28,758 nucleotides of DNA from a virus. The stretch lies in UHGV virus genome UHGV-0099614; one strand, written 5' to 3'. Positions 15,001-18,000 of the stretch are shown here, piece after piece. Every line of letters starts with the position of its first letter. The first letter of the stretch is position 1. The position numbers were made by a program.

Positions 15001-18000
15001 AGACATACCCCATACTGGATGCCTCCTGATGTTGTACAGGGTTATGCCTGTAATCAGCTAACTTAACGACGCCCATGCTTCACTCCTGCTTTGGCTAGTC
15101 TGTAAACACCAACAAGGCGCTCTGCGAACGCCCTGTTATTTGCTGCGGCTACCACTAATCCCTCAGGTGAATCAGGGTGTCGAATCTCTTCTTTTTCCTG
15201 GTATTTCTTACGACGTTTTGTCATAATTACTCCTGTGGATTGATCCAGTCTTTCTACATCAGGCCTCGAAGAATTCGCCGTTCTTCGGGGCTTTTTCTTT
15301 TGTCAGCATTCTGGCTACTTTCTTAGCCAGTTCCGCCAACTCCTCGTCTTCAACACCCCATTCAAGAACAGCCAGAAGCATTCCCATTTTTGGGATGAAG
15401 CTGTCTTTCCATCGCGAAATTTGCGATTCATTAATCCCTAACGCGTCGGCAACCTTTCGCTGGCCACGTACAGCAATTCGATTCAGGATGTTGCTTGTAA
15501 TTGCATTCGCTTTCTTGCGAGTACTTGTAAGTTGCATATGTAAGTATTTCCTTAACAAATAAGAAGTTATGCGCATCAACTTATGCGCGTTGTATTCCCG
15601 CATTTCGGCGGGAATGATGACCATGACTGTTAAAGAGCGGTGTTACTATTTGTTTTTCTTGTTGCTTGGGAAAGGACGAACTTCCTCTCCAATCACACTG
15701 CCATCAGGCTTTACCGTAACCATGATGTTACGGCCTGCCAGAATGGCCTTGCTGATAGCGCACTGGATTACACCAAAGTCACTGGCTGCTTTAGCCTGTC
15801 CATGGATTTTGGCGTAATCGGCAAGTGTCATTCGAATCATATGCACTCTCCGTTATTAACCATGAACAAAGAATACTACAGGTATTCAAAGCAATCAATA
15901 CTCAGGGTATTTTTAGTTTAAGTACCTTAGCTATTAGAATTAAGCTATGGAAAATAAAAAATCACTGACGACAGAACAGCTCGAAGACGCTAAGCGGCTT
16001 AAGGCTTTGTATGAGTCAAAAAAGAAAGAATTGGGAATAACCCAATACTCAATCGCTGATGAACTGGGTATCACCCAAGGAGCGGTAGGGCATTATCTTA
16101 ATGGCAGAAACGCGCTAAACGTTGAGGTTGCATCTGGTTTTGCACGATTGTTGCAAGTCTCAATTGCTGATTTTAGCCAGTCAATTGCTGCCAAGGTTGC
16201 AGAACAGGCAGAAAGCCTTAAGAGCGATGCCAACGTAAGGTATGCAGGGGAATACAGAGCAGGAAAGAGGTATCCGGTGTTAAGCAGTATCCAGGCTGGC
16301 TCGTGGTGTGAAGCATGCGAACCATACACCATTAAAGACATAGATGTTTGGCTTGAGTCTGACGCGCATATTCAAGGTAATGCGTTCTGGCTTAAAGTGG
16401 AAGGTGATTCAATGACGGCACCGGTTGGGTTAAGCATTCCAGAGGGAACATTCGTTCTTTTCGATACCGGAAGGGAGGCGATCAACGGCAGCTTGGTCAT
16501 AGCAAAACTTTCTGACTCTAACGAAGCAACATTCAAGAAGCTGATAATCGACGGCGGAAATAAATACCTCAAGGGACTTAACCCTGCATGGCCTCTCGTG
16601 CCAATCAATGGAAACTGCAAGATTATAGGCGTTGCAATTGAGACAAAACTAAGGCTGGTTTGATCACGCAAGGGGCGCTTATGGTTGGAACCGCTATAGC
16701 AAGCTTTTTTGGGATGTTGGCAATCTCGACAATTTACGGCTTAGCGCATGCTTTTATTGCGAAATCTCTATCAGAAAAAATAAGCCAGGCTTGGGCGCAT
16801 AGATCAGCTCGTTTCATGATTCTGGTGATCATGGCAATACAAGGGATATCTGCATTTATCCTCTATGGATCAAGCTTATACCTATTGTATCAAGGCGCGA
16901 CATTTACGCCTTACACCAGTGATTACGGAACTCTATACGATGGTAGTGAAGACATCTCTATGGCTTGGATTGTCTTTGGTTTATCTATGGCCGTGTCTGT
17001 TGTAGCAGACATCATTAAGGTAATTCTCGTCTTAACCTTCGCTGACTAACCCATAATCCCGGCAGCAATAGCTATCGGGATCCACTTCACATATCCCGCA
17101 TAAAAAGCACTGAACAAGCAGACACCGAAAAAATAAATATCCTTTGTATTCATTTGCTTATCATTATTTTACCAAAAATAAATACCTTGGGTATTTACAC
17201 AATAAAATACCTACAGTATTCTTTAGCCATCAGCAGGACGCTGGTAGCCAAACGGAACAGATTGGCAGGCTCTTTAACATTGATGGGATTGTCCCGCCGA
17301 AATGCGGGAACCAAAGAGTAGTTGGCTTTGGGGTGTGGTGAAGCCAGCTAGTCACTGGCAAGTGCTTACCTACTGTTGAGCGGTGAAGAGCTCCCAACGC
17401 TAGCAATAGCGTGGACGAGATGGGGAGCTGCGGGCGATAAGGCCGCCATAACGCGCACGTTGTCGCATGGAAAAATCGCTGGGGTGCCGGTTATACCCCT
17501 CCGAATGAGACTCAACAAGCTGGAGCTAGACTACCAGCCACCACACCACCAAAGCTAATCATCTGAGGAACAGAAAATGTTAGACATCATGACCAACCCA
17601 ATTCTCGGTGGTTTAGTTACCACATTCGCCATCTGCTTCGGTTTCACTAACCGCAGAGAAAGCGAAAGATAACTTCATGCCTAACTTCATGTTTTCCACT
17701 CGCGACGTGCTGGCGATGCTGGATGAGCTGGAGAAGATGCAGGCGCAATCGTCCAAATGGTGCGAAGCCTTCCATAAAGCCGTTTCCGTTGGCGCTCGGT
17801 ATGAGGAGCGGATTGCTGAACTGGAAGCACGGGAAATATCGCTCCCAGAACGTAGCAGTATGCTTCATCGAACAGATTTTCACGATGATTACCAAACGGT
17901 AATGGCATACAAAGTTTCTGAAGTCATCGCTGCAATCCGCGCTGCTGGTATTCGCATCAAAGGAGAGTGATATGAGCACTGGATGATAAACAAGGCATTA

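Follow-up and report, generated by a model that had tools for sequence, protein, structure and literature searches.

An HK620/mEpX2-type immunity region

UHGV virus genome UHGV-0099614, referred to here as the window (the whole stretch of DNA analysed, 28,758 bp), contains a cI repressor gene and a divergent cro gene, with short clusters of a repeated palindrome on either side of cI. Comparison with characterized phages makes it very probable that the genes and palindromes form the immunity region of a lambdoid prophage of the HK620/mEpX2 type, with a lambda-style CI/Cro switch and the palindromes as predicted repressor sites. The cI gene (15947-16663, plus strand) is intact and encodes 238 amino acids with matches to Pfam HTH_3 (E = 8e-10) and Peptidase_S24 (E = 5e-24); its best match in the Protein Data Bank is lambda repressor, 3bdn (E = 2.9e-52). 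A QAG cleavage site, a GDSMT serine and an FKKL lysine align with the lambda protein, in which cleavage falls between A111 and G112 and the other two residues are S149 and K192. The product therefore has the make-up of an immC repressor, an N-terminal helix-turn-helix domain followed by a C-terminal S24 domain that contains the Ala-Gly site together with the Ser/Lys dyad, and because that site and dyad are kept, CI should be SOS-inducible. Divergent from cI, cro (15646-15840, minus strand) encodes 64 amino acids of the lambda Cro family (PF09048, E = 3.6e-26) and is identical to HK620 cro.

The core motif, AATAC-N5-GTATT (AATACNNNNNGTATT), has four perfect copies in the window, at 15872-15886, 15897-15911, 17181-17195 and 17206-17220. 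All lie in the two clusters flanking cI, and none was found elsewhere in the 28,758 bp. Dinucleotide-preserving shuffles of the window held 0.06 perfect copies on average, and none of 100 shuffles gave four. A mismatch scan added AATATCCTTTGTATT at 17136-17150, which has one mismatch, and AGTACCTTAGCTATT at 15921-15935, which has two and lies 24 bp beyond the second site of the right operator (OR). Since the two-mismatch level is hardly above chance across the window (27 copies, 18 expected), we weighed the latter by where it lies and by the equivalent DNA of relatives, its motif score being insufficient by itself. Across the complete HK620 genome (38.3 kb), the perfect copies are again the four sites of OR and the left operator (OL) only. 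The original prediction had described four perfect palindromes and one imperfect one; all five were recovered, and the motif is not spread over either genome.

Positions 15215-17343 are 98-99% identical to HK620, mEpX2, HK630, HK140 and several other phages, two Stx2c-converting phages among them, and ~145 complete E. coli genomes carry the same block. The window CI has no amino acid differences from that of mEpX2 and one from that of HK620; the cI-cro intergenic region shows no differences from any of the three references compared, and Cro, OL1, OL2 and a more distal OL site are identical as well. In repressor, Cro and operators, this is the HK620/mEpX2 immunity type. The HK620 record AF335538 (Clark, Inwood, Cloutier & Dhillon 2001) annotates OR1-3, OL1-3, pR, pL, pRE, nutL, nutR and tIMM. 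When mapped to the window (L001 coordinate + 13714, with no indels), its OR1, OR2, OL1 and OL2 coincide exactly with the perfect sites, one each, while OR3 falls at 15920-15936 and OL3 at 17158-17174. The operator set is already known, having been annotated for HK620 since 2001, and the switch is an ordinary lambda-style one.

Operators overlap the promoters of the switch

OR occupies the cI-cro intergenic region as three sites spaced 25 and 24 bp, a tripartite operator with a divergent cro. OR1 (15871-15887; core AATACTACAGGTATT, 15872-15886) is a 17-bp operator with a perfect motif that overlaps the -10 hexamer of the PR promoter. OR2 (15896-15912; core AATACTCAGGGTATT, 15897-15911), equally perfect, abuts the PR -35 and a weak -35 of the PRM promoter; its centre lies 43 bp from the cI ATG. 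We scored the window with a position weight matrix (PWM) built from related loci, its training sites picked by the motif, and OR2 gave the best score (23.6 bits). OR3 (15920-15936; core at 15921-15935, two mismatches) is weaker, ranking sixth at 11.5 bits; it overlaps the PRM -10, and HK620 annotates OR3 at this place.

Both OR promoters were read by eye. PR (15870-15898, minus strand) has -35 TTGATT (15898-15893), a 17-bp spacer and -10 TATTCT (15875-15870), falls within the HK620 pR annotation and would start transcription near 15863. For PRM (15935-15949, plus strand), the -10 hexamer TAGAAT (15935-15940) starts on the final base of OR3 and stops 6 nt short of the cI ATG at 15947, so the cI mRNA is predicted to be leaderless or nearly so, as in lambda.

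Beyond cI, a second operator cluster lies over the PL promoter and is followed by nutL, the order of a lambdoid immC region. OL2 (17180-17196; core AATACCTTGGGTATT, 17181-17195; 22.5 bits) overlaps the PL -35, and OL1 (17205-17221; core AATACCTACAGTATT, 17206-17220; 20.1 bits) overlaps its spacer and -10; both are perfect motifs and correspond to the HK620 sites of the same names. PL (17194-17222, plus strand; -35 TTTACA, 17-bp spacer, -10 TATTCT) scored 9/12 matches in a promoter scan, lies within HK620 pL and would initiate near 17229. Operator centres stand 19, 43 and 68 bp from the cI ATG, compared with 19, 42 and 66 bp in lambda, and the original prediction was right to place the sites where lambda has OR and OL. 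Its count of two sites in OR and three in OL needs correction at OR, which has three, the site at 15921-15935 having been missed; the imperfect OL copy that it included turned out better supported than the OL3 of the GenBank record.

We propose that CI dimers, and Cro dimers too, would recognize pseudo-palindromes of 17 bp in which AATAC(Y)-N3-(R)GTATT is conserved. OR1 and OR2 together would cover the -10 and -35 of leftward PR, the presumed driver of cro, cII and the replication genes, with OR2 beside the weak PRM -35 and OR3 over the PRM -10. Given these overlaps, CI should shut PR, stimulate its own leaderless transcript when bound at OR2 and, at high concentration, repress that same transcript, as in lambda. 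At the other end, strong OL1 and OL2 would cover PL and let CI shut it, and OL2 probably has another, weaker site 45 bp upstream of it. The weak third sites may serve negative autoregulation and possibly looping, and Cro would use the same sites. From sequence, we infer CI and Cro binding, cooperativity, PRM activation and looping alike.

PR has the same layout as PL: site, 10 bp, site, CTTT, the sites themselves containing the -35 and -10 hexamers. The two clusters could be alike because a single promoter segment was duplicated, in which case the palindromes would be promoter-associated and not protein-binding. Such an origin leaves OR3 and the distal OL site unaccounted for, as both lie outside promoter-equivalent positions.

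Half-sites follow the CI recognition helix

A CI protein scan, limited to one genome per species, gave 80 loci at 40-76% identity, and ~5.7 kb was fetched for each. The helix (I/V)(T/S)QGAVGHY(L/I/M)N(G/A)R is kept in the CI of 25 of these loci (43-76% identity), which come from ~14 genera: Lelliottia, Siccibacter, Enterobacter, Tatumella, Lonsdalea, Serratia, Pantoea, Providencia, Proteus, Yersinia, Pectobacterium, Scandinavium, Kluyvera and marine Microbulbifer. All 25 have at least one copy of the motif, at one mismatch or fewer, upstream of cI, and 23/25 have at least two. The sites sit at about -74, -50 and -26 from the ATG, and the central five bases and the DNA between sites differ from locus to locus. 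An OR1-type site is kept at -73 to -76, and at the OR3 position most relatives have a one- or two-mismatch site at -25 to -27, usually AATA(A/G)C...GGTATT, directly followed by TA(G/C/A)(A/T)AT in the place of the PRM -10. In most same-helix loci, a second cluster lies 0.8-3.1 kb downstream, with OL1 and OL2 always 25 bp apart, and hardly any further matches occur in the ~5.7 kb. By comparison, 49 loci with a homologous C-terminal domain and an unrelated N-terminal helix have no upstream sites (0/49), and their seven scattered single matches are about what chance would give.

Half-sites thus stay fixed across genera while spacers, inter-site DNA and even -35 hexamers change. The motif also goes with the recognition helix of CI, being lost wherever another N-terminal domain has been swapped in. 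Both patterns argue against descent of the two clusters from one duplicated promoter segment, which we regard as highly improbable. To our reading, they are the first broad comparative support found for AATAC-N5-GTATT as the functional half-site pair of QGAVGHYLNGR repressors, from E. coli phages to Microbulbifer.

The same contrast appears at short range. A viral-contig scan yielded 80 more loci, most with an identical CI. Among 32 close haplotypes, 1/30 half-site columns of OL vary, against 14/45 columns in spacers and between sites (Fisher p = 0.003); the half-site columns of OL2 are invariant. At OR, 13 close haplotypes are invariant in 20/20 half-site columns of OR1 and OR2, and the variable positions are 15877, 15903 and 15906 in the spacers and 15890-15892 in the inter-site DNA.

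A third group of six loci (L022, L023, L026, L031, L033 and L064) combines another, shorter N-terminal scaffold with a similar helix, ITKGAVSHWLNARR. Its sites, at both OR and OL, are TATACA-N3-TGTATA and share the ATAC-N5-GTAT core. If QGAVGHYLN and KGAVSHWLN helices on two scaffolds do share this code, that would be a portable helix-to-half-site rule. In this group, OR1-OR2 stand ~59 bp from OR3, which suggests a different layout.

Several points weigh against reading the palindromes as the operators of a working lambda-style switch. The promoter scan of the window found only PL, leaving PR (8/12 matches) and PRM below threshold. Two Yersinia loci (L019 and L020) with the same CI helix have a divergent OR2, GCTACTACAAGTAGG, that keeps only the inner TAC...GTA; these loci also hint that the three innermost bases of a half-site are its most important ones. 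The PWM scores of the core are partly circular. A full-text literature search on HK620 and mEpX2, which did not cover the primary HK620 paper, found no CI binding study. Finally, the transcription of cI in the remnant is presumed.

A probable distal third site at the left operator

The one-mismatch copy at OL (17135-17151; core AATATCCTTTGTATT, 17136-17150) lies 45 bp from OL2, within the feature that HK620 calls 'tIMM' and not in its OL3. With 13.5 bits, it is the fifth best PWM match in the window, where non-operator sequence reaches no more than 9.2. All 10 of its half-site columns are constant in the 32 close haplotypes, against nine varying columns in the adjacent 30 bp. The site recurs at the same 45-bp spacing, with different spacers, in Tatumella saanichensis (L010; AATATTCAAAGTATT, one mismatch) and Kluyvera (L029; AATACTATGCGTATT, perfect), and one viral contig carries it as AATATCTCAGGTAAT, with two mismatches. 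Other relatives have an OL3 at 21 bp (L009, L013-L016) or 30 bp (L006, L007) from OL2. On this evidence, 17136-17150 is probably a real weak operator.

The published OL3 position fares worse. Its equivalent in the window, TTATCATTATTTTACCA at 17158-17174, has six mismatches to the core motif, scores at background (-24.4 bits) and varies in 5/17 columns among close relatives. We rejected it as an operator; the comparison suggests that the GenBank OL3 feature of HK620 is misplaced and that 17136-17150 is the better candidate. What occupies this slot, between the distal site and OL2, is an IHF-consensus-like sequence, TATCATTATTTTA at 17159-17171, with one mismatch to WATCAANNNNTTR. This IHF-like core is unconserved in the other loci that have the 45-bp spacing.

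The distal copy may instead be a chance extension of a conserved A/T-rich element (GAAAAAATAAATWYCC) upstream of PL, which would leave OL with two operators. Its left half does belong to a conserved element, AAAAATAAAT(A/T)(T/C)CC, that is present in nearly all related loci (L005-L062) whatever lies upstream, even where OL2 has a separate OL3 at 21 or 30 bp. Lambda (locus L087) likewise has TGCAAAAAATAAATTC at the equivalent place, and the right half of the site is degenerate in L011, L012 and L062. Yet, with the left half in place, chance would put a GTATT precisely 5 bp from it about once in 1000 times. The right half is also seen again: L010 and L029, whose spacers differ, have GTATT, and the viral contig has GTAAT. 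Together with the invariant half-sites and the PWM rank described above, these recurrences make a chance extension rather unlikely in our view, and we retain the distal copy as a probable operator.

In the window, the A/T-rich element reads GAAAAAATAAAT(A/T)(T/C)CC at 17127-17142, ~95-100 bp upstream of the PL start, and overlaps the third OL site. Giladi and colleagues reportedly described, in 1998, a 'distant UP element' of lambda PL that works together with IHF, and 17127-17142 may be its counterpart at this PL. OL might then have a variant architecture, in which the third operator, 45 bp (~four helical turns) from OL2, lies atop a UP-like element near -95 and the IHF-like sequence at 17159-17171 fills the slot of lambda OL3. 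CI bound at the distal site could block an IHF-dependent upstream contact of RNA polymerase or could anchor an OL-OR loop, unlike the tight OL3 of lambda. A joint reading, in which the locus stands out either by this variant OL (a distal operator 45 bp off and an IHF-like OL3 slot) or by an ATAC-N5-GTAT code common to two N-terminal scaffolds, strikes us as improbable.

The same DNA also contains a 34-amino-acid hydrophobic open reading frame (MNTKDIYFFGVCLFSAFYAGYVKWIPIAIAAGIMG; 17153-17049, minus strand), codons 2-6 of which are the distal OL site. We rejected it as a gene and consider it probably spurious: it shrinks to 16 amino acids in L014 and 8 in L029 while the DNA element stays, and it is uncalled in the HK620, mEpX2 and PGAP annotations. 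What the analysis adds to the HK620 annotation is comparative support for the half-site, the restoration of OR3 to the set and a probable correction of the published OL3; as discovery, there is little to gain.

Relation to lambda and epsilon34

The switch resembles that of lambda in many respects. The two repressors share their domain architecture and 53% identity in the DNA-binding domain, lambda CI being the best solved relative. In both, the sites are 17 bp long, cI starts immediately downstream of the PRM -10, an accessory gene separates cI from OL, and nut sites follow PL and cro. Positions A2, A5 and C6 of the half-site are common to the two in the 17-bp register, and Gln44, Asn52 and Asn55 of the lambda helix are kept. 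Contacts between these residues and bases are assigned from the lambda co-crystal literature. The window half-site is nAATACy, whereas that of lambda is TATCACCGC (TATCAC), so that positions 3 and 4 differ, and positions 7-9 are not conserved. The window helix, QGAVGHYLNGRN, departs from lambda QSGVGALFNGIN at Ser45, Gly46, Ala49, Leu50 and Ile54. The third OL site is 45 bp from OL2, compared with 20 bp in lambda. The Cro recognition helix was likewise compared with that of lambda Cro (QSAINKAIHAGRK).

When the lambda operators are compared with the window, neither the imm-lambda half-site nor the imm-lambda helix is found. The original prediction had reasoned that the motif differs from the lambda operator and that the repressor defines a distinct immunity specificity. 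The half-sites do differ, although as a variant in the same 17-bp register with A2, A5 and C6 in common and not as an unrelated code. The distinct specificity is borne out by the contrast of nAATACy with TATCAC and by mEpX2, whose CI and OR are identical to those of the window and which is reported to be in its own immunity group, forming triple lysogens with lambda and HK022 (PMC3442831).

The DNA-binding domain occurs at at least 95% identity in sixteen phage records, including Stx2c-converting phages. Because some Stx2c-converting phages have the same DNA-binding domain, a host expressing the CI of the remnant is predicted to be immune to them.

Putative operators have been proposed, by prediction only, for Salmonella phage epsilon34, with consensus WTACRAWWTGTAT (PMC2629481). 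They share the inner ATAC-N5-GTAT core and a place just upstream of PL and PR. They differ in an A/T-rich spacer and in the outer position, which is W where the window has AA. The comparison covered the operators.

An intact switch in a gutted prophage

Synteny with intact relatives confirmed that the prophage is gutted, as first proposed, with O, most of P, N and other genes missing. Compared with HK620 and mEpX2, the remnant lacks O, most of P, the nin-Q-lysis-head genes, genes for ejection and everything in the PL operon, N included. Its left flank runs from fadL to yfdC and then through argW (3913-3984), intS and gtrAB. A different gtrC and tailspike segment follows; after it come needle and gp10 genes, most of the ejection genes being absent. 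Next comes an unassigned stretch of ~700 bp (13833-14539), between gene 10 and the P fragment, that matches none of the references used. The P fragment (14539-14968) is the last 430 bp of the gene, and a precise deletion junction at 14967/14968 marks where O and the 5' two-thirds of the P gene have gone, a loss of 1,788 bp by comparison with an intact relative. Beyond P, the order is gp53-like, cII, cro, cI, hkaS, OL/PL and nutL, and homology to intact prophages stops at 17649, ~90 bp before the N start in the intact relative.

An ea22-like fragment (17803-17974) leads to a second island (17983-28758), which begins with a 5'-truncated tyrosine integrase (17983-18279), contains gapS6a/b and a rolling-circle replication gene and lies next to dsdC. 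In intact relatives (locus L003), this island, again beside dsdC, has the defence genes GapS6a/GapS6b together with genes for a rolling-circle replication protein and for a serine recombinase. Several E. coli chromosomes match the island at 99.9-100% identity. The junction between the two parts (17300-18050) is shared by none of 5,426 complete E. coli genomes.

The original prediction suggested that cI is kept because it protects the host from superinfection. Protection is one possible explanation, and recent decay explains an intact cI equally well; the block is 98-99% identical to live phages and the junction is unshared. The switch may quite possibly be an inert relic, left by recent decay through large deletions, with a cI that is neither selected nor necessarily expressed and that gives the host no maintained benefit. 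A CI identical to that of viable mEpX2, in DNA so close to that of live phages, leaves little time for point-mutational decay; the absence of the junction from the complete genomes gives no sign of long-term retention of the scar; and the erosion took the form of deletions that happen to spare 14967-17649. Against a relic stands the completeness of what is left. Promoters, operators, cI, cro, cII and nut sites are all intact, and PRM needs only CI and host RNA polymerase. Targets for immunity exist among the sixteen phage records with a near-identical DNA-binding domain, and retention of the repressor is common in defective prophages.

Accessory genes and nut sites

The remaining genes of the immunity region correspond to those of HK620. 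cII (15259-15537, minus strand; Pfam Phage_CII, E = 3.5e-42) matches the HK620 cII coordinates. Downstream of cI, an hkaS-like gene (16681-17049, plus strand) encodes a 122-amino-acid hydrophobic protein equivalent to HK620 hkaS. It belongs to phrog_6534, of unknown function (E = 4.6e-79), and had no match in Pfam. Lying between cI and OL, the gene has the slot of rexAB in lambda, and its product is a candidate prophage-expressed exclusion or moron protein. The protein is more variable than the cI product, with 3-4 substitutions. Just past the hkaS stop, a stable hairpin, AUCCCGG...UCGGGAU (17056-17081, plus strand; z = -2.6), stands without a U-run. At the equivalent of HK620 tIMM further downstream (17131-17161), no hairpin was seen.

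Among other candidates, an Rfam scan of the window returned the argW tRNA only. A 204-bp tandem repeat near 660-990, suspected from paired weak motif matches, was rejected when Tandem Repeats Finder gave nothing.

Both nut sites are intact, and the N gene that they served is deleted. nutR (15595-15639, minus strand) comprises boxA CGCUCUUUAACA and a boxB hairpin (fold z = -2.3), in agreement with the HK620 nutR annotation. nutL (17269-17309, plus strand), assigned from the HK620 annotation and its fold, has boxA GCUCUUUAACA at 17269-17279 and boxB UCCCGC-CGAAAU-GCGGGA at 17292-17309. The two have a common boxB stem-loop, CCCGC-CGAAAU-GCGGG, and an rrn-like boxA (G/CGCUCUUUAACA). Across boxA and boxB, 0/29 columns vary among the 32 close haplotypes.

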